Below, piece after piece: positions 21,408 through 61,972 of a stretch of 64,000 nucleotides of DNA. The stretch's first letter is position 1. Every line of letters begins with the position of its first letter. The stretch lies in contig CM060733.1 in NCBI GenBank assembly GCA_030704615.1, forward strand, positions 27,280,001-27,344,000. The letters are read 5' to 3'. This DNA comes from Takakia lepidozioides (Eukaryota > Plantae > Bryophyta). Both the position numbers and the translations under genes were made by a program. The notes below the pieces were generated by a model, which did no database searches, was not told where the DNA came from, and worked only from the letters and a program-made list of their open reading frames with translations.

Positions 21408-24400
21408 CACACCCCTACCAACAGGGAGTCGATGTCCTCATCGACTTGTCCATTTTGTAGAAACGAACATCCAAGTTGTGGCGTCCCACATCAAGGAGTT
21501 TGTTTCCGTACCATGGCCCCACTCTCCACTAGCTAGTTCGGCCGACTTACTCCAAGTCCCGGCCAAGGGTGGAGCCTCTCAAGCTCCTCCCAGTGCACTC
21601 TTCTTGGCCCACTTTATGGCCAAGGAACGATCCTCCCCGAGGATCGAATCGCCTTATTGCAACAACATTGCTTGCGACCCCTCATGATGTCGCTTTTGGC
21701 ATCACCTTGAGCAAAGGTTCACCTTGAACCCTTTTTGACTAGGAAGATAACCTTGAACCAACCGTGCGCCCCAATCACTACAATTGGGTCCGCCTTGGAA
21801 TGTTGGCCTGAGGTACGGGAACACGCCGAAGCCGCACTACGACTTCGTCCCGAGGCTACACGATTATAGTACGTGAACGGAAGCACGTAGCTTCCGCGTT
21901 AGCCCGCACTACAAGGCAACCCCCTCGGTAGCGCAGTTATAGTATGCGCACGCGTGAGGTGCGTACTAGCACGTGAACTCCCAAAGAAGGCGCAAGTTTC
22001 CTTGCCCCTTGGATGGGAGTCACCCGATTTCGGCACTGCGCAAACACACGATTAATCCAATTTACCTCTCCCACTTTTGTAAGCAGGTTGGAGGTGATGA
22101 CCAGCCAACCATAGGAGTGCTTGCGGTGGATGCAAGTACAGGTGTAGGCTATGTTAGAAACTTAGTATTCCAAACCATAAGCCGCAACAGGTTCTCTACC
22201 CGGTTACCTTGTGGAGAGGGGGTTAGGGACATGTTCATGACCGGTTGAGTGTCAACACGGAGGTGCCACTAGTTGCTGGGGACAGTTCCGGTTCGAGCAC
22301 TAGCAATACTAGTGGGTACACGAGACGAGGTGTGCGGTTTAGGCCACCTTCACCTCCTATGTCTTCTACGGAAGGTTCTGATTCGGATTGTGAATCAGGA
22401 GGACTCATACCGGCGGTGCAAGTTGTTTCTTTGCCATTGTTGTGGGACACAATGGAGGAGATGTATGGAGCTACCAAGGGGCCACGAAGGTACTCTGGGG
22501 CGGTGGGCACCATCGAGTTGGATGATTTTATCCAAGAGTTTGATAGTTGGTGTGATTTGCAGCAAATGCGCAATCCACAACTATTTACGCCTTTCATGGC
22601 ATGGAAGGGGCTGTTTCAGCACCTTGAGGGGCCGCCTATGGATGATTACCATGAGTTCAGGCGGGGGCATGAGGTTGAGATCGAGGAGTGGAGGATGTAC
22701 TGGTCACCCGACTATGTCTCCATCACTAGGGGCACTAGAGCCACGAGGGCAGTGGCTACACCTGCCGCTGCACCGGCAGCTTCAGCAAGTAGTAGTGGGA
22801 CTAGTGGGACTGGTGATACAGTAGCTACGACGTCCACCCAAACCACTACCACACCAGCACTAGCACCCGTGCCTGCCTTCAACCGTGTTGTGGAGTTCTT
22901 CGAAGAGTTGAGAGGGAACTACCAAGGACAGAGAAGTTGCGGAGCTTGCAAGAGTTCCAACGGAAGCCGACCGAGAGCTTGAGGGAGGCTTTCACTCGCA
23001 TGAGGCGCTTGATAAATGTAACCCAAGGGGTTACGGAAGCTCAGGCAGTCCAATTCTGGTATGGGATATTGGATAAGGAGCCGAGGAGAAGGGTGCGGGA
23101 GGCAACTCTCCTACAAGTGGCCCAATCCACCTTAGCAAATGTGTTTTTGCTGGCAGAGCAGATAGAGCTCAACATGGTGGAGGAACGAGTGGTCATGGTG
23201 GGATTTGCTAAGGAGACACCACGGGGTAGTGGTGCTCCTAGCCAACCACTACCTCAACGTGCTCAAGGCAACAAGGGGGCTCAGGTGAAGCTCAGGGAAG
23301 GGCAGAGAGGACCTCAGATGCATGGGTCTCTCCCTTCATTTGCTGGCCAACAACGGGCGGATGTGGTGTGCTGGACATGTGGAGGACCCCATGTCAAGAA
23401 GGATTGCCCAGAGGGAGGCAAAGGGCCGGCACATGCACAGCCTGCACAGCTGCAGTGTGGGCATTGTGGCAAGCACGGGCATGGAGAGGCCCAATGTTAT
23501 GGTTTGCATCCTGAGTTGCGCCCAGGCCAGTTCCAAGGGAACAATGGTGGCCGGGGGCGAGGTGGAGCAGCCCAGAGAGGATGAGGTGGCCAGCCACGAG
23601 GTGCAGGCCAAGGGCCAGCTCAACATGGCCAAGGACGCGGAGGTCAGGGGGTTGACCAAGGCATGGCCAACCGGCTTCAGCAGCTAGAGCAGAGGCTCGC
23701 TGCCATGGCTATAGCTCAGGTGGTACCGGCTCTAAGGCCGGATGGTCCACCTCCTGCTCCTGAGGGAGGAGATATGGGAGGCATGGGATTCATGTGTGGA
23801 GCAGCACTACCACTAGTGCAGGTGGAGTCTGCTGCAGCCGTGACTCGAGGAGCAGCACAAGTTCCTGAGCCACGAGGTGCAGAGGTGGAGTTGGATCCAC
23901 AGCGTGGGGAGGCAAGCCGTCAGGCTAGGCTTCCTCAGTCATTCACATTGGCAGAGACAGTGTCGACGCCATCCATGGCACCTAGTTCTCACCCGACTGT
24001 TACCGAGGCGGAGGTTACTATGCCATTGGGGAAAGCTACACGGGTAGCACCACTACCTAGTGTTGCCAAGGCTACGGCAGCTAGTGTGCTGCTAGGAGCG
24101 GCCACATCTGTGTGCCAGGCTCCATTGTTCTCGGCTACCATGATTGCGACGCCGGGGGTAAGACCAGCTGAGGTGTTCAGGCTGGTAGCTACATCCTGTG
24201 AGAGTGGGGAGGTTACTTCATCTTCTGCGGAGATAGTGGGAGGTGTAGTGCCGGAGGGATCCTCGGATTTGAGGGTCAAGACTGCCACGGCGGCGCCATG
24301 GCAAGCTGCAGCTGCCAGGTTGATGGAGCTGCCAGCTAGGCCAGCCATTGAGCGCGCCATGGTGACACCTGGAGTTGTCATGTTAGACAACTAGGATGAC

Positions 24401-25170
24401 ATTTTCTGTTTGAGTGGACCGGCAGGCAAGAGGTACCGGCCACTGCGGGTCTTGTTGGACTCGGGAGCTCAGCCATTGATGCTGGGCAGAGCTGCTATTG
24501 CAGGCTTGGGCCTCACGGAGGCGGATATGGAGCCTTGTCCTTTCCAGATACAGACATCTCTGGAGGATCGGAGCAGGCTCGGGGTATGACACGGCGTGAG
24601 TTGGCTATCAGACTACGGCCGGATCACCCTACAGATGGCTCAGTGATGCGAGCCAAGGCCATTGTGACAGACGCGGTCTCATACAATGTCCTGGTTGGTG
24701 GGGCAGTGTTGTATCCCATGGGCTTCACCCTGGATTTTTGGGAGGAGTCAGTTTCCTATAGGCCTGCAGGGCAGTCAGGGGAGGGCCGGCGTGTGCAGCT
24801 CCCTGTGACGTTCATAGGAGGAGTTGCGGTTGCCCAGTGAGGCAAGATGCCAACACTAGCAGCATTCACAGCGGCAGTGAGTTGGCCTAGAGAATTGCTT
24901 GAGGGCAACGCTCATTCAGAGGATGTGCCACCTCCGGGAAAACATGATGACATGTATGGTATGGCGGAGTTGCCTACCATGGTTGCTCAGACTCCATTGT
25001 GGGGCACGAGCAAGGATTTGCAGCGGGATGCTGATCGACGGGTGCAACAAGCCTGGGTGGAGGCTTTTGTACCGTCAGGAGAGGAGGAGAGTGCGGGGAT
25101 TGCACCAGGACCACCTCAGTTGTCTCCATTGGACACCACAACTATTGTGTGGCAGTATCCGGATGAAGGC

Positions 25171-26106
25171 ATTTGTCTTCTGGACTTGTTTGGTGGGATC
25201 AGCACCGGATTGGCTGCTGTGTTACAGGCAGGTGTACGAGTTCGGCGTTACCTGTATGTGGAGAGGGATGAGACTGCACAACGCGTTTCACTTTGCCATG
25301 TTGCTCAGTTGGTGCAGCGGTACCTTGAGTTGTTGTCGGTGTCTGCAATTCGTGGATATCAGCAGGCCTTGCCAGCAGACATTTCGTTGCTGAGGGCGCA
25401 GGATTTGGAGCGGGTTGGCTCCATTGATCTGGTAGTGGCAGGTTGGCCCTGCCAAGGGCATTCATCAGCCGGGCATGGCAATGGATTGCGAGACTCGAGG
25501 TCGGGTCTGTTTTGGGAGATGGTGCGGGTTTTGCGCCACTTGCAGCTTCATCAAGCTGTATCTCCAGCATACATCTTGGAGAATGTGCCACTGATGGGCG
25601 ATTCTCGGGCTAGGGTGATGGCCAGTGTGCATCAAGTCCGGTCATGGCTTGGGTCAGCAGTGTTGCTAGATGCAGCTACAGTGGGGTCACGGGCTCATCG
25701 TCCACGGCTACGGTGGACTAACTTGATGCCACCCGCACTGCTCAAGCGTGCATTTGATGGGGTGCAGCGGCCAGCACATCTCACAGTGGATAGCATTCTG
25801 GACACAAGGAGGCAGTCTCAGCGTGTGAGACACGATGACCGTTCGCCTTTGGCAGTGGTCAACAAGGTGGGTCAACCACGAGCAGCATTACCTACACTAC
25901 TCAGCTTTCCAGGATCGCATGCTTTCCGGAATAGTGGACTTGGCCTCCTGTGGGATGCTCAGTTGCAGCAGTTAGTGGAGCCTAATGCTGACGAGCGTGA
26001 GCGGGCAATGGGTTTTACCACTGGTACCACGGCGGTGTCGTCTCTTTCTGAGGCATCACGTCATCAAGTGTTGGGGCAAACAATGGATCTCAATTGCTTG
26101 ACCTAG
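25171..26106 (+). other. C5 cytosine methyltransferase domain inside Pol
   Basis: Motif I LLDLFGGIS, II YVERD, III ADISLL, IV GWPCQGHS (catalytic Cys at 25450), V GLRDSRSGLF, VI ILENV, VIII SRAHRPRLRWTN, IX ERERAMGF and X VLGQTMD, in canonical order. Confidence 0.93.
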
Positions 26107-29100
26107 ATTATCACCTTGGCTCTGGCTGAGCAACGCAGAGTGCGGAGTACACTTCCCTCGATTGTCTCTCTGCCTACCGAGACGGTACAGGCAGTGAGTG
26201 GGGGCGAGCATGTGAGGACCACGGGGTGCATGCATCCATGGCACACGTGGGAGGTGCTCGAGGTTCAGAGGGAGTTGGCAGCCAAGGCGGCTGTGATGGA
26301 TGAGGTTGGGGATTCTTCTCGGGTTGAGGAGGTCCTCAAGGATGAGATGATGGGGCAGGATGAGGCCTTGTCATTGACTGAGCAGGCAGGGAGTACTGCT
26401 CAAGAGGTTACAACATAGCAACCACTGGACGCGTCCTCTACCTCTAAGCCCACTGGACTTAAGGTTGCAGTTACGGAGGACAATTGGGAGCCTGACATTG
26501 GACCCATTGTTACCGGAGGAGAGAGACGACGTATACGGCGGTTCCTGAGGGCTTACAGGAATTGCTTTGCCTTCAGTTTGAAGGACTTGGGAGCACTGAA
26601 GGGTCAAGAGATCCATATTGAGTTGGCCACTGACACGCCAATCTTTCGGAGACCCTATAGATACAGTGACATGGAGAGGTCTTTGATTCAGATTAGGACT
26701 CAAGATCTCTGGGATGCAGGTTTGGTGGAGCTCTCTGGTGGAGAGTATGTTTCAGCCATAGTGATGCCAGCCAAGAAGGATGTCTATGGCAATTGGACGG
26801 AGAGACGTATGTGCGGTGATTACCGGCTTGTAAATCGTCAGACCAAGTCCGATAAGTATGCCATGCCAACACCGAGGAGATCTTTGATGCCATCGGCATG
26901 CTAAGGCCTTTAGCACTTTGGATTTATGATCCGGATATCACCAGTTGCCAATCAAGGAGGCGGACAAGCAGAAGACGACATTCTGGGGGATCAATGAGCA
27001 CGGCAAGGATTGCTTATATCAGTGGCGGTTCTTACCATTTGGGCTTAAGAATGCTCCTGCAGAGTTTCAGAGAGTCATGGATAGGATTCTAGCAGGGGTG
27101 GACTTTGCTCGGTGCTACATAGATGACATCATCATCTTTAGTGTTACGATGGAGGAGCATGAGAGATACCTTCAGGTGGTATTGGAGCGCTTGAGAGCGC
27201 ACGGATCGAAGTTGCATCCGGGGAAGTGCAAGTTTTTCCACAACCAGATTGAGTATCTATTATAGACGGTTTGTCAAGGGATTTAGTACCATTGCAAAAG
27301 CTCTAACCAAGCTAACCAAGGTGGACCAGGAGTGGCAGTGGGAAGATGAACAGGAACGAGCTTTTCAAGAGCTCAAGGCGAGGTTGACCTCGGCGCCTAT
27401 CCTGAGACGACCTATCAGAGGGCGTCTCTTTCAGCTGCATACGGATTGGAGCATGCTGGGGCTTGGAGCGGTGCTCACACAGGTGGATGATGAGGGAAGA
27501 GAGTTCGTAGTGGCTTATGCTAGCTGCTCGAACAACGCTGCAGAGGCTAAGTACAGCTCATATGAGGGAGAGTGCTTAGCTGCAGTGTGGGCCGTGGCAC
27601 ACTTCAGGTGCTATCTATACGGCAATCTTTTCACCCTTGTCACGGATCACCAGCCACTCAAGTGGTTGATGGAGTCAGACAAGCTTACGGGGAAGCTTGC
27701 ACGGTGGGCACTCATACTCTAGGAGTATGACTTTCAGGTTTTGCATCGACCGGGTTTGGTCAATCGGGATGCGGATGGATTGAGTCGCAATCCATGCATG
27801 AGCCAGCAGGATGACACTGGAGCTCGGTGGCATGGAAAGACGGACGAGGAGATGGTGCCGGGATGGCACGCATCTGTATTTTTGTGTATCTTGGCATCGG
27901 GAGGTCAGGTTGGACCTACAACAGGGATGACTGTAGATGGAGTGTCTGAGGACCCTGAGGCTAGTGATGAGCCAGGTGGTGCCAGAGATATACATGAGGA
28001 TTCGGCTGTGTTGGACTACCTCCGCACGGGAGACATGTCAGCCACTGTGACTGCCAGGGAGAGGGATCGGATCATGCAATGAGCCAAGAGGTTCAAGTGG
28101 GAGGGGATACACCTACTTCGAGTGTGGGAGGATGGTCGGGTGAGGATTGTGCCTCACCCCACACAGCTTGCACGGTTAGTGCGGCATGCCCATGAGGAGT
28201 TGGGGCATTTTGGAGTGCGACGCACTCACAGTTTACTGCAGGGGCAGTATTGGTGGCGTGGTATGCATACAGAGGTGCAACAATTCGTGGCTAGGTGCAT
28301 GGTATGTGACAGGGTGCGTGCTTCATTCAACGCCCCTACACCATAGTTGCATCCTTTACCAATCATGGGATTGAGCTACAGGTGGAGTCTTGACTTCGCA
28401 GGGCGTTTGCCACTGACTATGCGCCACCACAGATATGTGTTGGTGATGGTGGAGCACTTCTCCAAGTGGATCGAGTTTGTTCCATTGCCTGACAAGGCTA
28501 GTGAGGGGGCTGCATATGCATTCTTGGATCGTGTGCTTAGCCGATTTGGTGCTCCAGCTGAGGTACTCACGGACCAAGGGAGAGAGTTCTTAGGGGAGTT
28601 TCAGGCTTTGTGTGATAAAGCCTTGATAGACCACCGCACCACTTCTCGGGATCATCCTGAGGCCGATGGCTTAGCAGAGAGAGTTGTTCAGACGGTGAAG
28701 AGGGGTTTGCGCAAGTATGGCTTGCAGAAGGGACACCTAGGAGATTGGGATCTTCAGGTTCCTTGGTTAGCCATGGGCTACAGGTTCAGCAAACAAGCAT
28801 CACTTGCCTCCTTCTCACCATATTTCCTTCTCTTTGGCCGAGAGCCGGATTTGCCTGCAGCCATTCGTAGGGACACTGCTCAAGTCCTTAACCTTGACGA
28901 TCCGGACGTGTGGGTACGTGCATGTGATCAGCGTGCAGAGTTGTTCAAGAAAGTCATGCCCATGGCTTTTGAGAACCTTGTCATTTCACAGCACCGTGAT
29001 ACGTTGAGGTATGCCACTATACGTGGTGGAGGATATCATCCTGGGGTTCGGAGGTTTAGCCCTGGTGACTATGTTTATTTGCAGCAGACTACTCCAACGA

Positions 29101-29288
29101 CTCTGGATATTACTGCAGGGTGTGTTATTCTGAGGGTTCGAGAGGTGTTCCCCTCAGGGGTCCTGATCTTGGAGGGTCGGGATGGCATGACTTGGAAGGA
29201 CCATGTGCGTAATTGTGCGCCATGTCACCTTCCCAATGTCGATGGCAGAGTTGACCCAAACTTGGCAGTGGTACCTGCAGGTTTGAGG

Positions 29289-29432
29289 TGCATGCTCTGT
29301 GGGTCTGCCAAAGGGGCAGCCACCATGCTGGTGTGTGATCGATGCTCAAGGGGTTGGCATATGGGATGCTTGACACCACCTCTTGAGAAGGTTCCTGACG
29401 GAGATTGGTTGTGTCCACACTGCTTGGGATAG
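29289..29432 (+). other. PHD finger at the integrase C-terminus
   Basis: CMLC..MLVCDRCSRGWHMGCLTPPLEKVPDGDWLCPHC is a canonical C4HC3 PHD, in frame with the integrase core (ORF 28347-29432). Confidence 0.92.
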
Positions 29433-44779: not shown

Positions 44780-50097
<5,318 letters not shown>

Positions 50098-51469
50098 TCA
50101 AGAAAAGTGCCTTGCCAATGAAAACCGTAGGTGATATTCTCAGAAAACAAGAACGGGATGATCATATCCCATTGAATCAAAAACACTGCTTAGGATTCAC
50201 AGTAAGCCTAACTCATGACTGCCCACTTGTGAATCGTTTTCTAACCATAATACGTACAACAGTACATGGCCTACAGAAGGAGGGAGAGTGGGATAGGAGA
50301 CAAAAAGATTCACGTTTTTTGAATCGCTCTTCGCGGGTAAAATTTATTTCAATTATACTGAAATGCTCTAGGGTCATTCTACCGCTGGAGCTGTTCCTCC
50401 TAGTGATTCAGTGTCACATTTCGGCTACCGATAATTTGAGTCAGTATCTGGGCTGGTTTGCATCCAGGTCAGCAAAAGCCCAGCATCGTTGAAATTCTTC
50501 ACATTGAAAACGTCTGAAGTAGTTGCCTCTACCCATGCGCATTATTATGTTGGGTCTGTACTTGCCATGAGAGCTAGTGAAAACCCCTTAAACCTCTGAA
50601 ATCCCTAGGAATGGACCAAAGGTCACGTAAATTTGATCCAATCCACAGACGCACGTCGACCAGATGTGCGTCCATGTATGAACCACTCTTAATAAAAGAA
50701 CTGACTCCAAGGAAAACAGCTTCCAGATCCTGTAAGTCCTATCCTATGAGTCTGCATTGCGTTTGCCAAGACGAAACGAGTGGACAACACTTCAAAGTCT
50801 CGACCGTGAACTCAATTGATCAATCTCAATTTAGCGGTGGACAAACTTAGCGCCAATTCCCAAACCCTAGTTCCTTGCAAAGCTGCAGCAGGCTGGACAA
50901 GTTTTCAGCAGGCTTACCAGTGTCGGTACTTTGGTGTTGTAATGAAAGCGACACACAAAGAATGTCGATAGTGCCCCAGTACGAAATTCTGTAAAATTCC
51001 TGACAAGGGAGGATATTGCAATGGAGCAGCCAATGCGGACCGAGAACAACGTGGAGAGAGACACCAGCGCAAGAGGGAGCATATGGGAAGAGACAACCCA
51101 CAAAAGAATCCTCTTCTTAAGAAAGACCTTCCTTCTATGTCGTCGCTGAGTGTGAGAGAGCTGAGAGAGGAGTGTAGATGCCGTGCCGTGTTATGCCTCT
51201 ATTACTCTAAGCGACGACCGAGAGTCGGAGACTAGTTTAGCGTAGAGCAGGAATAGGGTGCTATAGTTCCACGTCATCGTAACCATGCCATCGTCACCAC
51301 GTCATCATCGTCACGCCACGTCGTCGTCAGCCACGTCATCGTCATCATTTTTGTGTGTTTGTAACGGAACCACGCACAGTCGGCAGCGATCAATGATCTC
51401 TTGTTGGTTTGTCAGGACAGTGAGGCTTTCTCTCTCAAGCAGCGCAGCATTCAGGGTTTCCAGCATCTG

Positions 51470-52290
51470 GCCTCTCAAGTGTTTCGTAGTATGGCTGAAC
51501 GGGATGTGATCTCATGGAGTGCAATGATCAGAGATTGTGCCCAGCATGGCTATGCTGAGAGAGGTTGTACGACTATTTGAGGAGATGCAACAGGAAGGCT
51601 TGAAGCCGAACAGTATCACATTAAATGCTTATGCTCGGCATGTAGCCATATGGGCCTAGTGGATGAAGGCCGTCACGACTTTGAGTCAATGAGTCACAAT
51701 CATAGCCTTACTACTACAGTTGAGCATTTTGGCTGCATGGTGGACCTTCTCGGCCGGGCAGACCGGTGGGTGAGGCAGAGGAGTTCATTTACAAAATGCC
51801 AATCAAACCAGGTTCTGTAGTGTGGATGGCCTTGCTTGATGCCTGCAAAATTCATGGTCATGTGGAGGTTGCAGAACGTGCGGTAAAAAGCATTCTGAAG
51901 AGTGATCCATAGGATGCTGCAGCTTTTGTCCTGCTTTCGAACATCTATGCTGCAGCAGGCAGGTGGGACAATAAATCAGAGGTGAGAAAAATGATGGAGC
52001 GAAGAGGTAGTGGGAAGGAGCTAGGGTGCAGCTGCATTGAGGTTCATGACTGGGTGCAAACACTGATTGTGGAGGGTGAATGGCATTCACGAATAGAGGA
52101 TATTGGCGTTGAGCTGAAGAGGTTGTCTGGGTAGATGAAGGAGGCCAGAACATGAATGACACATGCAACAGTTGGTCTTTTTTCGACTAACAAGCACATC
52201 CCCTGGGACACCTATCTGCATCATTGGTACTGCAGGTTTGTGGTGAGTGCCGCACTGCCACCAGGTTTATGTTGAAGATTGTTAGGCAAG
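51470..52290 (+). pseudogene. PLS-E-DYW PPR pseudogene fragment
   Basis: ERDVISWSAMI, GLVDEG, EHFGCMVDLLGRA, FVLLSNIYAAAGRW, GCSCIEV and VCGECRTATRF, with many stops and frameshifts. Confidence 0.85.
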
Positions 52291-53485
52291 CAGTTGATGA
52301 AAAGAGTATCACGCAAAAGGAGTAGCACGAAACCCGTTGTTTGTCTCATTATATTAAATTCTTCAATTATTGTATGGTTTATTTCTGTGCCTAGTTCTGT
52401 CCCTAAACCCTAATAACATGCCTTTTAAGCAGAATTCGAAAGTTCACAGCAAGAGGATGCTTCGGCCACCGCAGCACACGCGGAGGCGGAGGCACTCTTA
52501 TCAAGTAGTCCTCACAGAGTAATCCTAAAATCTCTCTCAATTGCCCCTTAGTAAAGTGCTGCTCATTCAATGCCCACTGAGTGAGGACATCAATAGCATG
52601 TTTATACCAGTGTTGGGCGGTTCTTGCCTTTGTGAAGGAACCTTCTGTTCCGGTTCCACAAATTTTTGAAGAGACGGTTCCGGATCCGGATTATTAAGGC
52701 GGTTCCGGTCCGGTTCAGGTTCTGACTTTTTAACATGGGGGCGGTTCCGGTTACTGGTTAGTTGCTGGAAAAAAAACACCGGTTCCGGTTAACCAGTTGC
52801 TGGAAAAAAAACACCGGTTCCGGTTAGGTTCCGGTTCTTTTTTAAAAATATATTAAATTCTTTTAATTTTTTATTCTTCTGGAAAATTAGATGAATTGAT
52901 CTGATTGGTCATTCTGAGAATTTTCAACTAAAACCAGGGAATTTATTAGTAAAACAGAAGTAAATAAACTTATATGTTTTTTGTGATTGTCTTTTATGGT
53001 ATATATAACTAGTTATATACGCATGGTCTCCATTAAAAACGGAAAACCAGAGATTTTATAAGTTGTCGTACGGTGTAGCAAAGAACAACTAAAACAAACT
53101 AACTACATAAGGATCTTAATTCAAAATACAAAACAAATTAAACATGTGTAATTCTATGGTTACCTTTTATGGTGCAGCAAAAGCACAACTAAAAAAAACT
53201 ACATAAATTTGTGTTTTTTGGATGATGCTTTGTCAATATAGCATACAACAAACTAAGTACACGGGATGTCACTGAAATTTTCAATAAAAATGACAAATAA
53301 ACAAACTCCAATCAAAGGAATATAGTGTAATATGTTCAACAATAATTTGTCTCTAAGACAAATCAGTCTACCTCAAAGAGGTTTGCCTCTGTAATCAAGT
53401 CCTCATTCTCATCTAAGAGGACTTCTTCCCTATCCAAAAACTCTTTCATGGAAGTACTAAAGCAACCAAATCTATCATCATTTGG

Positions 53486-55843
53486 CTAATTCTTGACTAC
53501 ACTCACAAGCATATCAAGGTTTTCAATATTTAACCTGCACCGTCTCAAGTTTGTTATGACACCTGCAATACTAAAAACCCTCTCAGCTTCAATCTGAGAT
53601 CCAACTATGCCCAAAATTAGCCGTGCCAAAAATCCCACATACGGAAAGAGAGACTCGTGTTCTTTCCACCATTTCAAAGGAGCCACGCACTCACCCTCAT
53701 TTATCTTCGTCCTTCTGAAATGTGATAGTTGTTCTCTCACCACTGTCAATGTCATGTCTTCATTGTGGTCATGCACACCAAATAAGGACATCTCGTCCAT
53801 TGTGGAAGTGGGCTGTGATTGGGCCGGAGTATCCGGATGTAAGACCTTGAAACACTTTACCAAAAGAGGCTCTAACACCATACTATCATATTGGGACACA
53901 ATATGCAAAGCACGCTCTTTGCCCACATATTGTGATACCAATGACAACCCCTTGTAACGTGGGTCAAGCATAAGCGCGAGCATATTGTGAGCTTTGCGCG
54001 ATTGAAACCCTTCCAAAAAAGAAAGAAATGGTTCCAAGACATATACCACCTCTCGAGCCATCCGCCATTCCAACAATGTCAACTATGTTGAGAAATCCCC
54101 CATGCAATGATCCACAGTTGCAGCCCCCCCAGCACTACTTCCTCGCATGCGAATTGTTGTGGCAATGGCTGCATTAAGAGCATCGGACAACAACCAAAAT
54201 CCCCCAGATTGATTCATAATGCACTCATGAACCACAGGCCCTAGAACTGTAGAAATTGATTGGGCAATGGCCCACACTTGTGGACTTGGTATGCGAGACT
54301 GCAGTGCCAATGAGGTTTGCCTAGAGTAACAAGTGATTATGGCTTGCCTAAACTCCAAAGTCTCTTGGAAGAGGATCACCTTGGAAGCAAACCGTGTCTT
54401 CACCGGAGTCTTCAGTTTGCGGGGATGAATGTCGCTGTCCACACATGCCTTTGCCCATTCTTGTCTCCATTTGCCACTTTTTTTGGTCCAAGTAATGGTT
54501 TTTTGCAACTCTGATTGGGCATTTTTTATAGAAACCGATCTCATATCTGCGCATACTTTTGCATCATTTGTTGCATACTGGCAACACTTGGACATTGCAT
54601 GCCCAAAACAGCTACCCACAAATGGAGAATCCAACCCCAAACACGCACATGAGACCACCGAATTCAAAGCATTGGTCAAAGTGGCCAAGTTACCTCCCTC
54701 ATCTTTGACGTAAGCAATAATGCGAGTATTGAGGCCATACTTCACAAGAAGATTGTTGACTTGATGTGCCATGGCAGCCCCAGATGTGTCAAATGTCTCA
54801 AACATGCCAAGAGTCACATGACATTGCTCCCACTGTTCATTAATAAAGTGCGCTATGATGACAAAAGTGTCAGTTCCCCCTCTTGACATCCACAAATCAA
54901 AACTCACGGAGCAAGTAGCACAACTCTGAAGAGATGGGGACATGTAGCGCTCTTTCGTCTTCTCTGCCAAGATTGGAATGGCCTCATTCACAAATGTCCG
55001 TCGAGAAGGGAAAACAATCCGAGGATTTTGCCTCAACACCATCCTTCTTAGCCAAGGGGATTCTACCAAAGACAGTGGAACCAACTCCTTTGCAATGAAT
55101 AAGACTAAATCCTCATTGAACTGCTTCTGTTGATCATCATTTTGGTTGTATGGAGTGGAGCTCCTAAAAAAAAAAACTATGTTTCCAGGAGTGGGGCCGG
55201 GCCTCTTTTTGGCTGGCCTACGGGCCTTCTCAGGTCCTTCATTTTCCCTCTCAATCCACCTACGCAAAACAATGTCATGTTCTTGATCCACATGCTTTCG
55301 AAGGGCAGAGATACCATTGGTTTTATTATAGGTCACAATGCCCTTCTTGCTTGCAGGAGTGACACCAACAGGATGACATAGAACACACCTCATTTGTTGT
55401 GGATTTGTTATGTCCACTGGAGCAGAGTCTTTTGTTGCATAGAATGCCCATGTCGAAGCAGTGCGACTGTGGGGCTTCCAAAAATCCCGTTGTTTGTCAA
55501 GTACTGGGAGCTGCGCCTCCACATCCAACACCGTGTGTGATGGCGAAACTGTGGAAGATGACATTGCAGCCGAGGCTTGATGAGCTGATGTAAATGAGGC
55601 TTCATGATGAGCATCCTCCGCAACATGGCACTCCACCAAAGCTCTCTCATTATCAACATTGATGTCAGGAACAACTTCCCTTTCTAGTTCATCGAAAATA
55701 TTGGGCTCCATGACATAAAAAGCTTGTGGAACAACTCCTGTGTAAAAACAATGCAAACAAAGAATCCAAAAGGCATTTAATAATTGTGCACAACTCATAT
55801 ATTTACAACTAAAAATGTAAACAACTAAAAAAATAAAGCTCAA
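53486..55843 (-). pseudogene. hAT transposase (BED finger, DDE, hATC dimerisation domain) with one premature stop
   Basis: BED finger W..CVLC..LRKHVDQEH, SFDLW, KDEGGN, CFGH, KTRF, LDPRYK and PLKWWK..SQIEAERVFS. An in-frame TAG at 54083-54085 separates two same-frame ORFs. The true 5' end is probably spliced. Confidence 0.9.
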
Positions 55844-56812
55844 TGAAAGGGAGTTACAAGCGGGTAATGGTGGCTGGTTGGCAGGTCCCTCCCTACTTTG
55901 GGCTCCCTCCCTCTCATGCAGAATCTGCTATAACAGAAGCCAAAGGGGCCATCTCATTAACCCCCAATTGTATCAAGAATTAAAAAAATTTAAAGAAAGA
56001 GAAGATACTTACCAGTGATGATCAATGTGGGCTGGTTGGCGGGCCCCTCTTTGCTTGTGCTCCCTCCAATGTAAAATCTACCCTAGTGGAGCAAGGGCTA
56101 TCAGCCCCTTGGTATATCATCAAAGAAAACAGGAAATAATAATAATAAAAATAATGATGATCAATGATTACCATGGACCAAGGGGCCTGGTTGCAGGTGG
56201 GCCCTCCTTACTCGTCCTCCTTACCTCTTGCACCACATGCCATAGCAGAAAAGGAGGAAGCTGATTAGCTTCATGGTGAACTAAAGCTAAAAACAGTAAA
56301 ATAACCAAAAGTGGTGGATGCTTACCAACGTCACTAACTCTACTTGCTACAGCATTGATATCCACTCGATTGCTTAGATCATTCTCTTTTGAAAAGCCCT
56401 CTCTAGTAGCTGAACAACACTTGGAGACGACTGGATGACTAAATTACTGACAACCAAGACCAGGTTGACTTTCAAGTGAAGACAGCCAGAATGCAGTGCC
56501 ACGTGGAGTAGCCAGAAACTATGAACGAGAGAGCCCCTGAAGGAGAGGATGGAAGAGACGGGGGGATGGCTGCTCACATACCTCCTCTCGCCAGTCAACA
56601 TTGTTCAAGATTCTCCGACACACAGCGAAAAGAGGAACACCCTTGTACAAAACCTACATAAGCACCTTATTCAGCTCCACTTGCAGCTATCCTACCATCC
56701 CACAATAGAACTTCTTGGAAATGAACAGTGCGGAGACCCCTCTAATTTGGTGCAAATCAATTCTGCCAATACAATAACCCACAGAATGGTGAACAAAAGA
56801 AAAGGGGGTTAC

Positions 56813-57648
56813 CTCACTCGCTGCAAAACCTGGGTAAATTTCAACCCCAAGTTTCTCTGCTTTCCCTCCTAGCCACCGCACCAGCTCACTCAAGCTATTC
56901 AAAGCATAGCACATGGTTATGGAAGGCTTCAACAAGCATTGCCAAATAGCTGGCTCTCACATAGAATAATACCCCTTGCATTTGTCTCTGTGGTTAAGCA
57001 CAAGTGTTTGTTCCAATCGAGGGTTTAGGATTTACCAAGCTTCCTGGGATTTGGTGGCCCACTGAATCATGGTGGAAGACTTTAGTATGCTAGTTTCCTG
57101 CATGCAACTGTCTCTTCCCCGTCTCTCTGTACACTTCAATACCTGTTCTACATAGGAAAGTAGCAGCATAATTTCCACAAAGTTGAATATGTGGAGAAAA
57201 CAAAAATATTGCACTCAAGCCGGAGTAGGAGAGTAGAAGCTGACCTAATAACAAAGTTACTATTGTTGTTGAAGGGAGATGGGAGTGGCAGTGCACGTTT
57301 CTCAAATAACATCCAAAACTTGTCTTCCACAACTGGCACACGCAGTGGAGCCTGTGTCAAAAGATCCAATTGATATCCTTCAACCAATCCTCATCAGCGA
57401 TAATCTGCTATTATCAAATTATCATGAACGGATGTGTCTCAATTGATTAGCACTCATCAGCAATCACTCCATTTCCAGCTGAATAACATCATGAACGGAA
57501 GACAATCACTTCCCAAGCCATCTACCTCTCTTGCATCATCCAGTTTTCATAACTATGGACTGAGGACATACGCCTTGATCCTTCCAATCTGGAAGGAGCT
57601 CACTGAGTGCCCGTGGTTCAAACACATTTCCCGAAAGTATGTGTGCAC
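56813..57648 (-). pseudogene. ETFQO: Captured three-exon fragment of ETF:ubiquinone oxidoreductase
   Basis: Exons 57648-57572 (GAHILSGNVFEPRAL), 57351-57245 (APLRVPVVEDKFW..LPSPF) and 56894-56813 (SLSELVRWLGGKAEKLGVEIYPGFAASE), with GT-AG introns. Confidence 0.85.
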
Positions 57649-58528
57649 CTGCCACATATACAGGAACAGTCAGGCGCCGAGGTTCTGTATAAATCTCTGT
57701 TGCACGATGAACAACATTGATCATGGCAATAGACACTGAGGCAAGGAAGCAACCTACTGTCATTACGCCCCAACCAACTTGCTATCCATTATGTGCTGCA
57801 AAAGTACAAATTGGTCATCCAAAGCTAGCCTGGCTGTCATCCAGATTGTACAACTAAGCACCGTACAAGAGAGGGGCAGAGAGCTGACCTCTTTCTAGGT
57901 TAATTCTTCTCGGTTGGTCTGAATTCATCTAGATTATGTAGCTAGCACAGAAGCGAATAGTCTCAGTCGATGGTCGTGGGACTGCCAGGGTCTAATTGCA
58001 TGTTTGATATTCAGCTATACGAGAATGATGTTCGAGTGGTACCAAGAGAGCAAGTTTTGGTTTCCGCTATGGAAAGTGCTGATGATGGCGCTGCAATTGA
58101 GGTAGAAGTATGGTGTACGCGTTGACCTTCCCTTGGAGAGATTTTAGCCCCACAATTTTCAAAGTGGCAAATTTGTTGACCAACTACAGCGCGAGGTGCA
58201 AACCTGCAGAATCTATCTCACTGTACACCCGATTTGATCTTCGGGGAGCAGCAGCAGTTGTTGGTCTATTTCTTCGCTGCTCCAATATATTGTCCAGGTG
58301 ACTCGATGTGGGCCATTCTGCACTTGCGCTGTCTGAGTCAATACACTTGTCTTGCTGCTCGCTCTAGATAAGCAAATTACTCCTAGGGCCCTCGTTCTGA
58401 ACAGCACATGGGTAAGCGCATTGATCTTTCGTGTTATGATGCAGGTCCCCAAGAGCAATTGGACACTACAGCCTTGAAGGCTTACACCTTACTGTCAGAG
58501 CTTCAGTAACAACAAGTTTACTGGATCC

Positions 58529-61048
58529 ATGAGTACTCTGCAAATCACTCCACTCACGAGGGCCATCGGCGCCGTGGTCGAAGGCATTTCTCTGGCGGAA
58601 CCGTTGCAGGATGCAGAACAGGCAGCCATCAACGACGCCTTACTTCAGTATCAGGTGCTCTTCTTCCGCAACCAGCCAATCACTCCACACCAATAGCACG
58701 CCTTCGCCAAGCGTTTCGGTGATTTGCACATACATCCAATCTACCCAAACTTAGGCCCCGAGTTAGAGGAAATCATGGTACTGGATGCTGACGGTGATCA
58801 CCCCCCAGACAATGATAAGTGGCACACCGACGTCACTTTCATTGAGACACCGCCCTTGGGCACAATCCTGAGCGGCAAGCTCATACCTCCCGTGGGTGGT
58901 GATACCCTGTTTCCCTCGTTCTTGAAGTGCAGATGGATGAACTTAAAGAGCAATTTCAGTGATCCCCAGCAATTCCCATTTCACTTGTGACACTTTGCAC
59001 ATTCAACTCCAGTCCTGGGTTCTGTTCAAACTTGCAGATAGAGCCTCCTCTTAGGTGCTGTTGTCGACCCTATCCCGATCTCTGCAGCCATACCATCTTT
59101 GCAACTGTTTCAGATCTGAGCATACTGATGTGAGAATTTCTTGCCCTAATAAGCACCAGAATTCCACTAATTAAGAGGTTGACATTGTGGTCTAGGCCAT
59201 CCAGGAAACTACATAGGAGGTGAGAAAGACAGGTTCTCTATGCAAGAAACAACACATGCTTGCCACACATCACTACAAGCTTAAACGCTACCAGTTATAA
59301 GGATGGGGATGAGCATGCATCATCCCTTTCACCTGCTCATTTTCTTTCTAGCTCTCACATATACACAATCATGTGCAGGTAAAGAGCTCATACAATAGAC
59401 AAAGAAGGCCAACTTAAGATTTACAGATGCCAGCTACTTCTTTGTAGAACCCCCCAAATAGAAGCCAAGGCTGCTGAAAGACTGATTGACAGAGATGTAA
59501 AAGCTTCCTGAGGCGAGATATATTTGAAAGAAAGAGAAATGAAATGATACTTTCTATTGAAATCCCAAAGAACTGAAGGGACTAGAGAAAGAATGAAACA
59601 AGAAAGGGAGTGGGGCCCTCAACAAGCAGCTGAAAAACAACTGATAATCAAGGGATTGTCTAAGAGTCAAGGACTTTTGTAGATATGCTGCCAAGCATTT
59701 CTGATCCTCGTAATGGAAGACCTCTATGAAATATTGGCTATCTTGGAATACACAATAGATCACAGAAGAGAAAGAGAAGAAAACATATATCTAGAAAGGA
59801 GAGGGCACAGGAAAATCCAGAGCTCGGAACAAGGAGGCACATTTCCTGTCACACCCAAGTTGTTCCAATCGGACAGAGGGAGACTTCACTATATCTGAGC
59901 CACTATGTGCAGTTCATGTTTGGCTTCAGGCACTTGATCAAACGGTAAAAATTTGAGAAGGTATTTGCAAAGTGTATTACTTCTTGGCTGCATACAAATA
60001 TATTACAGAACTACCTGGAAATACAAAGCTCACCGAAGATGCTACAATCGTAGGGACACGAGGGGAATTGGCTGTATCAAACTTCAGGGCGCTTTAGGGC
60101 GCTTCAGGGCGCTTGATCAACGTAGGAATTCAAAAATGTAATTGCAATGTCTTTCACTTCTGCATATAACTATACTGAGTAACAAAATAAGCTGGAAGGA
60201 GAGGGCATTCTAAAACTCCAAAGCACTCGTCTCACCCAAGATATTACAATCGTAGGGGCAAAGGCGGAAATTGCTATCTCTGAGCCACATTGGTAGTTCA
60301 TGTTTGGCTTCAGGGCGCGCGATCAGCGTCACAATTCAAGAAGGCAGTTGCCATGAGTTTGACAACATAACTCTAATGAGTTATACATCGAGCTGTTCCC
60401 AGCTCATTCCCCAGCGGATCCGCACAAAGGTAAAAGAGAAGAAGACAAACAGAAGAGAGAACGAGAGGCAGACCAGTAAAGGAGAGGGCACAAAGGGAGC
60501 CCATGAAGACGGCATAAAGAAGCATACATATTAGAAGACAACGGACTTCCACAAAACTGTGCTTGACAGAGTGTTGCAGCACTACGAAGCGAACAAGAGA
60601 TCACATGCCTGCGATCCAATCGGCATTGCAGCCTTCGAGGCGCTCTCAAAGCCATTGCAACAATTTCTTCTTGGGCTAAAAGCAGAGCATAGCTTCGTCA
60701 AGTCATTCTCGCAGCCCCGGTACCATACGAAGGTCGAGGGGACCCCAAGGCGCTGTGGGAGGAAGCTGTGAAAGAGCACCCGCCAGTGGTGCACCCTCTC
60801 ATCCGCACTCATCCTGACAGTGGGCGCAAGGCTCTCTTCCTGAGCCAAGGATTCCTGACCCGCATTGTGGATCTGCAAAAGGACGAGAACAATGCATTGC
60901 TGGGATTCCTGTTTGCGCATGCTACAAAGCCCGAATTCACAGTGAGATGGAGATGGTAAGCCAATGATGTGGCCTTCTGGGACAACCGCATATTGCAGCA
61001 CTACGGCGTGGCCGATTACCTTCCGCATCGCCGCATCATGAACCGCGC
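58529..61048 (+). pseudogene. tauD: Bacterial-type taurine/alpha-ketoglutarate dioxygenase, split by a ~1.7-kb insertion
   Basis: 58529-58910 gives QVLFFRNQ, FGDLHIHPIYP, PPDNDKWHTDVTF and GGDTL. 60621-61048 gives GIAAFEALS, HPLIRTHP, KPEFTVRWRW, WDNR..QHY and DYLPHRRIM. It is colinear with E. coli TauD as I recall it. Stops at 58694 and 60957, one frameshift. Confidence 0.88.
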
Positions 61049-61972
61049 ACGTAGAGACTAGAGACACTTAGGGCTACAGCCCACGGGTGGAACCGGAACC
61101 GGAACCGAAACCGAAACCCTAAACCCCAAACCCGGTTCCCACACATGTGGTTGTAGCTGGAACCGCCGGTTCCGGTTCCCACACAATCCCCAATTTCCGG
61201 TTCCGGTTCCGGTTCCGGTTCTGCACATGCGGGTCCGGTTCCGGTCCGGTTCCACATAACCGGAACCGGAACCGGCGGTTACCCGGGGCCCAGGCGGGTA
61301 ACTGCCCAACACTGGTTTATACCGCAGCGGAGGTGTTGGTGGCTCCAAGGCATCACACACCTTGCGCTTCACACCCATCTGAACCTGCGCCCAAACCCTA
61401 TCACCCCACCTAATAAGTAAGAGTAATGCAAATGAAGATCGACCATCAATGTATTCGCCATAGTTTTAGCATTACGTCAAAACTGTTTCAAATATATAGC
61501 GGATTTAGGTGCTTTAGCCAAAACTATTCCTATTTCAGCTATTACCCCGTCTATTATTATGTTTCCATACGCAGGAATACCCCCCGTTAGCTGGATTTCG
61601 TAGCAAATCCTATTTGTTTTTCGCCGTTTTAGGCTGCGGGAGGAGTTGTTACTAGCGTTATCAGTTGTTTTTATTATATACGCTTTGTGAAAATAATGTA
61701 TTTTGATACACCTAAAACAGATGCGCTGAAGGTTATTGAACAGAGGCAGCCAGAGAAAAGGGACTTAGCATGAATGAAAGAGCCTGCGAATTCATTTCAG
61801 CACAGAAGCGCCACCCGCCTGCTAAATAGGCACCCCTAATGTATATCTACAAGCTCATGTTCCAAATATTTACAGCTTTGGTATCCCTACAAACACTTTA
61901 GGGAAATACAAAGTCACAATAACCAATACCATCCAAAACACATAAATACCATACAATAATTGAAGAATTTAA

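Follow-up and report, generated by a model that had tools for sequence, protein, structure and literature searches.

A hAT transposon with an interrupted transposase gene and a broken, nearly complete copy of a probable host TauD gene

That DNA transposons capture genes is well established for seed plants and fungi. Pack-TYPE elements, including the Pack-hAT elements of maize and rice, are described in PMC8903248 as non-autonomous and as having no transposase gene. According to PMC6710886, a hAT element of Dothideomycetes that contains a copy of histone H3 is present in hundreds of copies and has been inactivated by RIP. For the Pack-CACTA elements, a hybrid-element model of transduplication, in which neighbouring elements fuse after complementary terminal deletions, is summarised in PMC13317346.

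We analysed a 64-kb stretch of DNA, referred to below as the window. We consider it highly probable that the region at 52608–61314 is a hAT transposon with its own, twice-stopped transposase gene and approximately 5 kb of host DNA, likely transduplicated, which includes a nearly complete, broken copy of a host TauD gene. Like the Pack-hAT elements, as presented in PMC8903248, it is a class II element bounded by terminal inverted repeats (TIRs) and a target-site duplication (TSD), the interior of which holds captured host coding DNA, here from at least two genes. Unlike them, it has retained a transposase gene that is full length but twice stopped; its cargo includes nearly a whole gene where theirs consists of short fragments, and it resides in a bryophyte-like genome. 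The main text of PMC8903248 does not mention "moss" or "Physcomitr". With the fungal histone H3 hAT, as described in PMC6710886, our element shares the organization of a complete hAT with a transposase and a transduplicated host coding sequence; it differs from it in that the cargo is likely present in one or a few copies and that decay took place by insertion and point mutations. The layout also resembles that of the Pack-CACTA hybrid model, as set out in PMC13317346, in having a complete left end with the transposase, a right end of ~260 bp, host DNA between them and no internal TIRs. However, it belongs to another superfamily, and its cargo is a mosaic that is not obviously a contiguous chromosomal stretch.

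Ends and transposase gene of the element

The limits of the 8.7-kb element were read from its TIRs and TSD in the window. The 8-bp TSD GTTTATAC was read directly at 52600–52607 and again at 61315–61322, and it is identical at 8/8 positions on both sides, as is characteristic of hAT elements. The TIRs, which were located by a pattern search, are 15 bp long and complementary at 14/15 positions, the left one being CAGTGTTGGGCGGTT (52608–52622, plus strand) and its inverted partner on the right being CAGTGTTGGGCAGTT (61300–61314); TIRs of this short type are also expected of a hAT. The pattern matched only twice in the 64-kb window, in inverted orientation, against 0.01 matches expected by chance, and thus no internal TIRs were detected in the element by this search. 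In the left subterminal region (52608–52860), the GGTTCC repeats amount to 8 motifs within 253 bp and are accompanied by a 35-bp tandem duplication, while the right arm (61057–61314), which is matched by family contigs of the data sets X6 and X7 from 61057 onwards, consists of subterminal GGAACC repeats and the TIR. Over the terminal ~250 bp, the GGTTCC/GGAACC motifs reach a density of 32–55 per kb versus 0.4 per kb elsewhere, which corresponds to an ~80–130-fold enrichment. A hAT bounded by TIRs and a TSD at these very positions had been proposed in a preliminary description of this DNA, and the 15-bp TIRs, the exact 8-bp TSD and the subterminal repeats were all found.

The comparison of the element with itself and with the window revealed only an internal duplication of 72% identity and the subterminal palindrome. 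The window around the element is plant nuclear DNA, most likely of a moss, containing PPR, P450, dynamin and MGAT2 genes as well as Ty3 elements.

The minus strand at 53366–55711 contains a hAT (BED-type) transposase gene which, as judged from Pfam, homologues and alignment, is full length in comparison with its relatives. The hAT C-terminal dimerisation domain, Dimer_Tnp_hAT (PF05699), was recognized with 45.6 bits, the cut-off being 21.4. The search for homologues returned 19 proteins at E ≤ 1e-3 (best E 3.9e-203), 15 of which contain PF05699 according to precomputed domains. The identity amounts to 62 and 57% to proteins of Diphasiastrum and to 46–48% to those of Ceratodon, and the transposase aligns end to end with the hAT transposases of mosses and lycophytes. 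The alignment also revealed two in-frame TAG codons, at 54083–54085, where the relatives have Glu, and at 53486–53488, where they have Trp, so that the uninterrupted reading frame of an autonomous element is not present. Since both TAG codons are premature, the present copy of the element is not autonomous now. The proposal that the element keeps its transposase is thus borne out as to the presence of a full-length gene but not as to its integrity. Among the 82 further open reading frames of the element, the Pfam scan gave no match above the curated cut-offs and six weak ones.

The cargo DNA and its broken TauD copy

The copy-specific interior of the element, or cargo, comprises about 5.2 kb (55809–61049). 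Its left limit is approximate: in the data set X5, a contig of the multi-copy family departs from the window sequence after 55808, and the depth falls there from ~20 to ~3–7, so that this limit is set by the loose end of one contig and by depth, which is not the same as copy number and gives only a weak hint of it. The right limit is the point at which the homology to TauD stops (61049). With a depth of ~1/5 to 1/7 of that of the transposase region, the cargo is likely present in one or a few copies.

The cargo is a mosaic derived from at least two genes. A genomic fragment of an ETF-ubiquinone oxidoreductase (ETF-QO) gene, recognized by its match to PDB 2gmh (E 2.5e-5), occupies 56810–57649 of the minus strand. 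A tblastn comparison with nine proteins resolved it into three collinear exons (57569–57649, 57247–57354 and 56810–56896) with the introns between them, and a contig of the RNA-like data set X7 matches 56811–56897 with one difference. The fragment is truncated and lies head to head with TauD. Host gene DNA, namely TauD and the three ETF-QO exons, is therefore located between the TIRs, as in the Pack-hAT elements.

The TauD copy lies on the plus strand in two parts, which were delimited by profile and alignment. The first (58529–58912) extends from Met1 to GGDTLF and has TAG at 58694–58696; the second (60616–61049) extends from A/P-IGIAAFEAL to RIMNRA and has a 1-nt deletion at 60724–60725 and TAA at 60957–60959. 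The relatives have Gln at both stops. The two frames match PF02668 at profile positions 1–129 and 168–266 of 267, with scores of 92.9 and 99.1 bits (cut-off 27), and the match to E. coli TauD (PDB 1gqw) has an E value of 3e-41 over residues 3–128. As previously claimed, HTD and the distal His are intact: WHTDV and the His of QHYG are present, and the alignment with 1gqw shows the same motif opposite WHTDVTF. The His-X-Asp pair and the distal His are presumably the iron ligands. The reported cut-off of the gene at RIMNRA, right at the subterminal repeats, was confirmed as well, since the frame ends at 61049, 8 codons before the TILGDKPY/F end of the relatives, and the right arm begins at 61057. 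Meanwhile, the coding sequence is not the clean, intron-free one that had been described, because it is split by a 1,703-nt insertion and carries two stops and a 1-nt frameshift; with the 8 missing codons, no complete open reading frame is left. In three other data sets from this species, one of the two stops (TAA at 60957) and the frameshift do not occur. To judge from its coding sequence, the TauD passenger would likely yield no working enzyme here.

The insertion (58913–60615), defined by alignment, contigs and self-comparison, contains a high-copy stretch within 59453–59763 and a diverged internal duplication (59848–59968 and 60229–60351). Its ends are CC..AT, that is, neither GT..AG, GC..AG nor AT..AC, and a spliceosomal intron was ruled out on these grounds.

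Source gene and junctions in other data sets of the species

For comparison, we used DNA (X1 and X5) and, by inference, RNA-like sequences (X6 and X7) from the same species. X6 was taken as RNA-like because the depth over the TauD exons is 62, yet it is 0 in 8 of the 10 bins of the transposase region (2.87 and 0.83 in the remaining two); in the DNA runs X1 and X5, unlike in X6, the transposase region is the more abundant one.

A 1,413-nt contig of X6 consists of 58443–58912 and 60617–61048, joins 58912 straight to G plus 60617 without the insertion, and continues as (A)TILGDKPF followed by a stop. The same native continuation was found in a 302-nt DNA contig of X1, where TILGDKPF and the stop are joined directly to 61019–61048. 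These results indicate that a source TauD gene with its native end exists elsewhere in the species and is about 99% identical to the copy in the element. Given this identity, the capture is likely recent. As for the leader, the intron that had been proposed at ~58412–58497 is not supported, as the RNA-like contig is continuous over 58443–58912. Separately, there may be a 5′ leader intron at 58298–58444: a contig of X6, unmatched at both of its ends, matches 58013–58300 and stops one base off the predicted junction.

In the X6 contig (depth 62), precisely these 1,703 nt are missing, which could also mean that the transposon-borne TauD is itself a working, expressed gene, the transcript of which loses the block as an intron and is completed by a downstream exon. 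X6 indeed shares with X1 and X5 the differences of their transposon copies from the window (at 60889, 60891, 60908 and 60957, and an extra C after 60725), and none of the X1 and X5 DNA contigs has the insertion-free junction 58912/60617. However, the skipped block has CC..AT ends instead of any of the three pairs of intron termini named above, the frame in the window has two stops and a frameshift, and the direct joining of the native end to 61019–61048 in X1 DNA indicates a separate DNA copy instead of a distant exon. We regard this explanation as very improbable.

The preliminary description had also predicted an intact parent gene elsewhere in the genome. The native 3′ end in X6 and X1 agrees with it, but the uninterrupted form is missing from the DNA contigs of X1 and X5. 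As, in addition, the X1 depth is flat over the TauD exons and the insertion (293–424), the DNA does not reveal a complete source gene. In the protein collection, no near-identical parent protein above 87% identity was found with the N half (507 matches, 991 candidates) and none above 82% with the C part (971 matches, 1021 candidates). Meanwhile, X1 and X5 contain a second form of TauD, in which the sequence joined upstream of 60916 is unrelated and does not occur in the window (the 30 nt joined at this point gave 0 matches there).

These data bear on the possibility that the hAT moved TauD instead of copying it, leaving a 3′ remnant at the old locus of the DNA-sampled strains, with their only N-terminal three quarters dead in the transposon and an intact gene in the RNA-sampled strain. 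The flat depth and the occurrence of the TauD N part of X1 and X5 in the transposon context only would fit such a history, as would the separate fragment (60916–61048 with the native end, behind unrelated sequence) and the intact appearance of the RNA-like transcript of X6. Yet contigs show presence, not absence, and the depth of X5 is only 3–5×; besides, the remnant and the cargo have 133 nt in common, an overlap not expected from simple cut-and-paste. This course of events appears unlikely, and we favour transduplication.

The junctions of the cargo were found in DNA contigs of both X1 and X5. The border between the insertion and TauD is bridged by an X1 contig (60588–60945) and an X5 contig (60517–60945), and that between TauD and the transposon end by contigs 61019–61085 of X1 and 60916–61083 of X5. 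That the window is an assembly chimera or contains bacterial contamination had been named beforehand as a possible refutation; in favour of this, GC-rich bacterial tauD contigs touching 60884–61005 are present in the X5 metagenome. However, each of the cargo junctions examined is spanned by independent contigs from two studies, the unit as a whole is enclosed by the TIRs and the TSD, and it has plant genes and plant retroelements on its flanks, which makes this origin of the sequence barely credible.

The TauD family of plants and the history of the element

The nearest proteins to the TauD copy are Ceratodon purpureus M758_6G134800 and M758_6G135000, with 85 and 87% identity in the N half and 82 and 77% in the C part; the overall identity to a Ceratodon chromosomal gene is 84% over 267 aligned columns. 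These hypothetical proteins of 280 aa are of the same length class and have the same motifs, but, unlike the copy in the window, they are encoded by intact annotated genes. The copy belongs to the same Pfam family as E. coli TauD (1gqw/1os7) and the proteobacterial taurine dioxygenases and keeps HTD and the distal His. It differs from E. coli TauD in being truncated, interrupted and provided with stops, and its intact relatives are plant chromosomal genes. The identity to TauD of Chitinimonas and Pantoea is 64–70%, about the same as for some plant homologues.

The maximum likelihood tree contained 66 rows, 11 of them plant-like (four taken to be plants from their position in the tree) and 55 bacterial by name or unnamed. 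All 11 plant-like rows formed one clade (UFBoot/SH-aLRT 99/96) nested among bacterial TauDs, with genes of moss (Ceratodon), liverwort and lycophyte; the copy in the window fell within a six-row moss clade (100/98). The tree is unrooted and singles out no bacterial sister group or donor of the plant clade. The plant relatives sit on contigs of 8–63 Mb and plant genes flank the copy in the window, which places both on plant chromosomes. Among the named entries in the best 120 rows, there was no alga or seed plant and one tardigrade record (Hypsibius, in the C-part search).

Taken together, PF02668, the match to 1gqw and the nesting among proteobacterial TauDs uphold the assignment of the enzyme to the proteobacterial TauD type. 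Grouping with plant homologues had been set beforehand as a test of the claim of horizontal acquisition, and the outcome is divided, as the protein groups with plant chromosomal genes inside the bacterial TauDs. Since it groups with moss, liverwort and lycophyte genes, any bacterial origin is ancient, vertically inherited and not tied to the transposon. The claim that the hAT mobilised a horizontally acquired gene thus holds insofar as TauD lies in a transposase-retaining hAT, but any transfer was old and a resident plant gene was merely picked up. From the tree, the plant TauD family likely descends from one old bacterial acquisition common to mosses, liverworts and lycophytes.

In a further scenario, a bacterial tauD was recently transferred straight into the transposon, which acted as the entry vehicle. 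This would account for the 64–70% identity to Chitinimonas and Pantoea TauD, similar to that of some plant homologues, and for a coding sequence without a spliceosomal intron. It is contradicted by the position in the moss clade and the 84% identity to the Ceratodon chromosomal gene. Moreover, the coding sequence has 55% GC (GC3 63%) in an element of 45% GC overall, the species has a near-identical transcript with an untranslated tail, and the moss and lycophyte genes lie on contigs of 18–63 Mb, which argues against contaminants. We therefore consider such a transfer extremely unlikely.

In the literature that we searched, no work on the plant TauD family was found; taurine, TauD and dioxygenase are absent from the main text of Yue et al. 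2012, and TauD-type terms from the main text and one supplement of PMC12513842, a large catalogue of horizontal gene transfer in plants.

We conclude that the element captured genes in the ordinary way of transposons and is a new case of the known process of hAT transduplication. The host fragments would have been taken up as DNA by an autonomous-type hAT. As far as one copy can tell, the route was either repair-associated copying or, as proposed for Pack-CACTA, the fusion of two adjacent elements that had undergone complementary terminal deletions. The 8.7-kb composite would then have transposed as one unit into its present site, giving rise to the 8-bp duplication. As the transposase of the present copy is broken, further movement would need its supply in trans by the ~5–7× more abundant family members.

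The locus provides a clear case from a genome of the bryophyte type, in which a transposase-bearing hAT contains nearly a whole gene ~99% identical to an expressed relative, and it could serve as a young example of how capture happens. If TauD was moved instead of copied, a transposon would have been caught depriving a moss lineage of a metabolic gene that had been acquired horizontally. As a by-product, the analysis shows that TauD of the proteobacterial type forms a chromosomal gene family, and one clade, in a moss, a liverwort and a lycophyte. Should these enzymes be active, sulfonates may be a source of sulfur that non-seed plants scavenge.

Structure and Coding Capacity of the Element

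The ends claimed in the preliminary description were borne out. The left terminal inverted repeat (TIR), CAGTGTTGGGCGGTT, was read directly at 52608–52622, and its inverted partner at 61300–61314 is complementary to it at 14 of 15 positions. The TIR pattern matched twice in the 64-kb window, at the two element ends and nowhere inside the element (0.01 matches expected from shuffles). The 8-bp target-site duplication (TSD) GTTTATAC, read directly, is identical on both sides (52600–52607 and 61315–61322), and its length is that of hAT elements. Within ~250 bp of either end, GGTTCC/GGAACC units are dense (32 and 55 per kb on the two sides vs. 0.4 per kb in the remaining element and 0.43 per kb in the remaining window), and tandem arrays were detected in these subterminal regions. 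By its TSD, TIRs, and transposase domain, the element (8,707 bp; GC 44.8%) belongs to the hAT superfamily.

The element sits in plant nuclear DNA. Also present in the window are an intact intronless PPR gene (655 residues; 44964–46928, minus strand), a P450, fragments of dynamin and MGAT2, and Ty3-type retroelements. A PPR pseudogene with an E motif (PF20431, E 6e-10; 51267–52190, plus strand), broken over at least three frames, adjoins the hAT insertion site on its upstream side. A Ty3-type retroelement at 22227–29429 (plus strand) encodes a C-5 cytosine DNA methylase domain (24841–26103; PF00145, E 2e-13) in an ORF upstream of its reverse transcriptase, RNase H, and integrase, and the integrase is followed by a fused PHD finger (28347–29429). 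Such a methyltransferase domain is uncommon in retrotransposons and may merit separate attention.

The transposase gene (minus strand, 55711 to 53366) forms a single frame of roughly 780 codons that can be aligned end to end with BED/hAT transposases (19 homologues at E ≤ 1e-3). The Pfam search returned the hAT dimerisation domain (45.6 bits) and no family at E ≤ 0.01 for the N-terminal 614 residues. Two in-frame TAG codons were found, at 54083–54085 (Glu in eight of eight aligned relatives) and at 53486–53488 (Trp in all six relatives reaching that position). The element thus retains a transposase gene, as had been claimed, but this copy lacks the capacity to encode the full protein.

Two proteins of Diphasiastrum complanatum matched the transposase best (62% and 57% identity), ahead of Ceratodon purpureus (46–48%) and Physcomitrium patens (40–43%). 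The transposase (P0222) is therefore clearly nearer to two lycophyte proteins than to any listed moss protein (at most 49% among the full-length matches listed), whereas the cargo TauD is nearest to moss genes. One lycophyte relative shares a 63-Mb contig with the two TauD genes of that species. The lycophyte leaning may merely reflect unannotated transposon genes in mosses.

In the two DNA data sets of the species, X1 and X5, the summed contig depth was about five to seven times higher over the transposase region than over the cargo (2163–5926 vs. 318–424 in X1; 19.7–35 vs. 2.5–5.75 in X5). Contig depth is not copy number, and these ratios, together with a multi-copy X5 contig that departs from the window after 55808, weakly hint at several family members elsewhere without this interior.

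The Interior and Its Probable Host Cargo

The copy-specific interior extends from about 55809 to 61049 and contains two recognisable host pieces; none of the 82 remaining ORFs of the element scored above the Pfam cut-off. The first piece comprises three collinear minus-strand exons of an ETF-ubiquinone oxidoreductase (57569–57649, 57247–57354, and 56810–56896) with introns between them, corresponding to residues ~149–255 of a 644-residue homologous protein. As no exons for the remaining protein were found on either side, the piece is a truncated stretch of genomic sequence that was copied as DNA. A contig of the RNA-like data set X7 differs from the last exon at 1 of 87 positions. Upstream of TauD, 204 nt (57958–58161) are replaced by a single G in one X1 contig and are present in an X5 contig, which is an indel polymorphism within the cargo.

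The second piece is the TauD gene, starting with the ATG at 58529 (plus strand). Its N half matched E. coli TauD (1gqw) over residues 3–128 (E 3e-41), both halves matched PF02668, and the iron-ligand motifs are present as claimed (WHTDV and the distal His in QHYG). The frame carries five kinds of damage: a TAG at 58694–58696 (Gln in relatives), a 1,703-nt insertion between GGDTLF and (A/P)IGIAAFEAL (58913–60615), a 1-nt deletion at 60724–60725, a TAA at 60957–60959 (Gln in relatives), and a truncated end, RIMNRA (61049), past which relatives continue to TILGDKPY/F. Of the intron-free coding sequence cut at RIMNRA that had been described, the end stands, but the frame is split by the insertion, two stops, and the frameshift.

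The inserted block was ruled out as a spliceosomal intron by its CC..AT ends. Its GC content is 43%, compared with 55% for the TauD coding sequence (GC3 63%), and self-comparison revealed a diverged duplication inside it. A stretch within 59453–59763 was very abundant in all four runs examined (depth 20569 vs. ~350 alongside in X1; 344 in X6; 103 in X7), and numerous contigs diverge near 59687 and 59721. The stretch is probably a transcribed short repeat present in many copies.

Origin of the TauD Gene

The best TauD matches were two chromosomal genes of Ceratodon purpureus (85% and 87% in the N half, 82% and 77% in the C part), followed by Logan and JGI proteins (77–83% in the N half), Diphasiastrum complanatum (72–74%), and Calypogeia fissa (64–71%). 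Chitinimonas, Silvimonas, Pantoea, and other Proteobacteria ranked below the plant matches (60–70%).

Maximum-likelihood trees were built from the window reading, with X at each break, and 68 of 221 proteins, excluding the partial Calypogeia protein P0017; the careful tree of 66 rows also excluded the long-branch proteins P0168, P0034, and P0081. In the latter, all 11 plant-like rows formed one clade (UFBoot 99, SH-aLRT 96), a grouping recovered in 100% of 200 bootstrap trees. The window TauD fell in a six-row clade with Ceratodon (100/98), and the bacterial sister group of the plant clade was an unresolved polytomy. The enzyme is thus of the proteobacterial type, as proposed from the outset, but it belongs to an old, vertically inherited family in these plants, so the transposon captured a resident gene.

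A TauD annotated in the tardigrade Hypsibius exemplaris (P0168) also lay among the bacterial-type matches; its branch is very long and its composition odd, and it represents either contamination or a further acquisition by a eukaryote. Among the papers searched, none was found on TauD in bryophytes.

Source Gene and Possible Routes of Capture

Six runs from three studies contain part of the stretch. X1 may be the window's own source sample and hence not independent; X5 comes from a separate study. Contigs of both span the insertion-to-TauD and the TauD-to-transposon-end junctions, so the arrangement is not an artefact of a chimeric assembly. X6 looks like RNA and was taken as such because its depth was 62 over the TauD exons and 0 in eight of ten transposase-region bins (2.87 and 0.83 in the remaining bins). 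X1, X5, and X6 all have C at 60957, giving CAA instead of the stop, and an additional C after 60725 that removes the frameshift, indicating that these two defects are private to this assembly or strain. Position 60616 is G in X1 and X5. A comparison over 9.3 kb gave 114 differences between X1 and the window; 51 are transitions with A/T in the window and G/C in X1, and 10 are the reverse, a bias that would fit C-to-T decay of the window copy.

A 1,413-nt X6 contig joins 58443–58912 to 60617–61048, with the 1,703 nt absent and six differences from the window on each side, and continues past 61048 as (A)TILGDKPF-stop. The same continuation was seen in a 302-nt X1 DNA contig. The species therefore possesses a near-identical TauD copy with the native end, and the identity of about 99% makes a recent capture likely. 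The expected intact parent is supported to this extent; meanwhile, no DNA contig of X1 or X5 showed an uninterrupted TauD junction. Depth was also flat over the TauD exons and the insertion, and a second DNA form in X1 and X5 has 60916 onward preceded by unrelated sequence that is non-coding in the TauD frame and absent from the window. Contigs can reveal presence but not absence, and a full parent may therefore still exist. These observations would suit an element that moved TauD rather than copied it, which we consider quite improbable. The second form retains the final 133 nt of the captured TauD, followed in X1 by the native gene end, and may be a remnant of the parent or a further captured fragment.

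The single TSD shows that the 8.7-kb composite reached this site whole, in one transposition event. The host fragments would have entered a transposase-bearing hAT before that event, possibly when two neighbouring elements fused after complementary terminal deletions, a documented route that has been proposed for Pack-CACTA (PMC13317346). Such a fusion fits the lopsided build: the left arm is full and includes the transposase, the right arm measures only ~260 bp, and the interior contains no TIRs. The cargo is a mosaic in which a doubly truncated ETF-ubiquinone oxidoreductase fragment and TauD lie head to head, which speaks against its origin in a single contiguous piece of chromosome. Transposons also capture unlinked DNA by repair-associated copying, which could have operated here; one copy cannot tell the two routes apart.

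With host DNA between its TIRs, the element behaves like Pack-TYPE transposons, but these are defined by the absence of transposase sequence (PMC8903248), and this element has a transposase gene. The closest architecture described is a complete Dothideomycete hAT with histone H3 (PMC6710886). The preliminary observation is thus partly confirmed and its interpretation partly supported. With intact ends and subterminal repeats, the element would remain open to mobilisation in trans. Overall, the case is an ordinary hAT transduplication, apparently a young one, and its passenger gene is dead.
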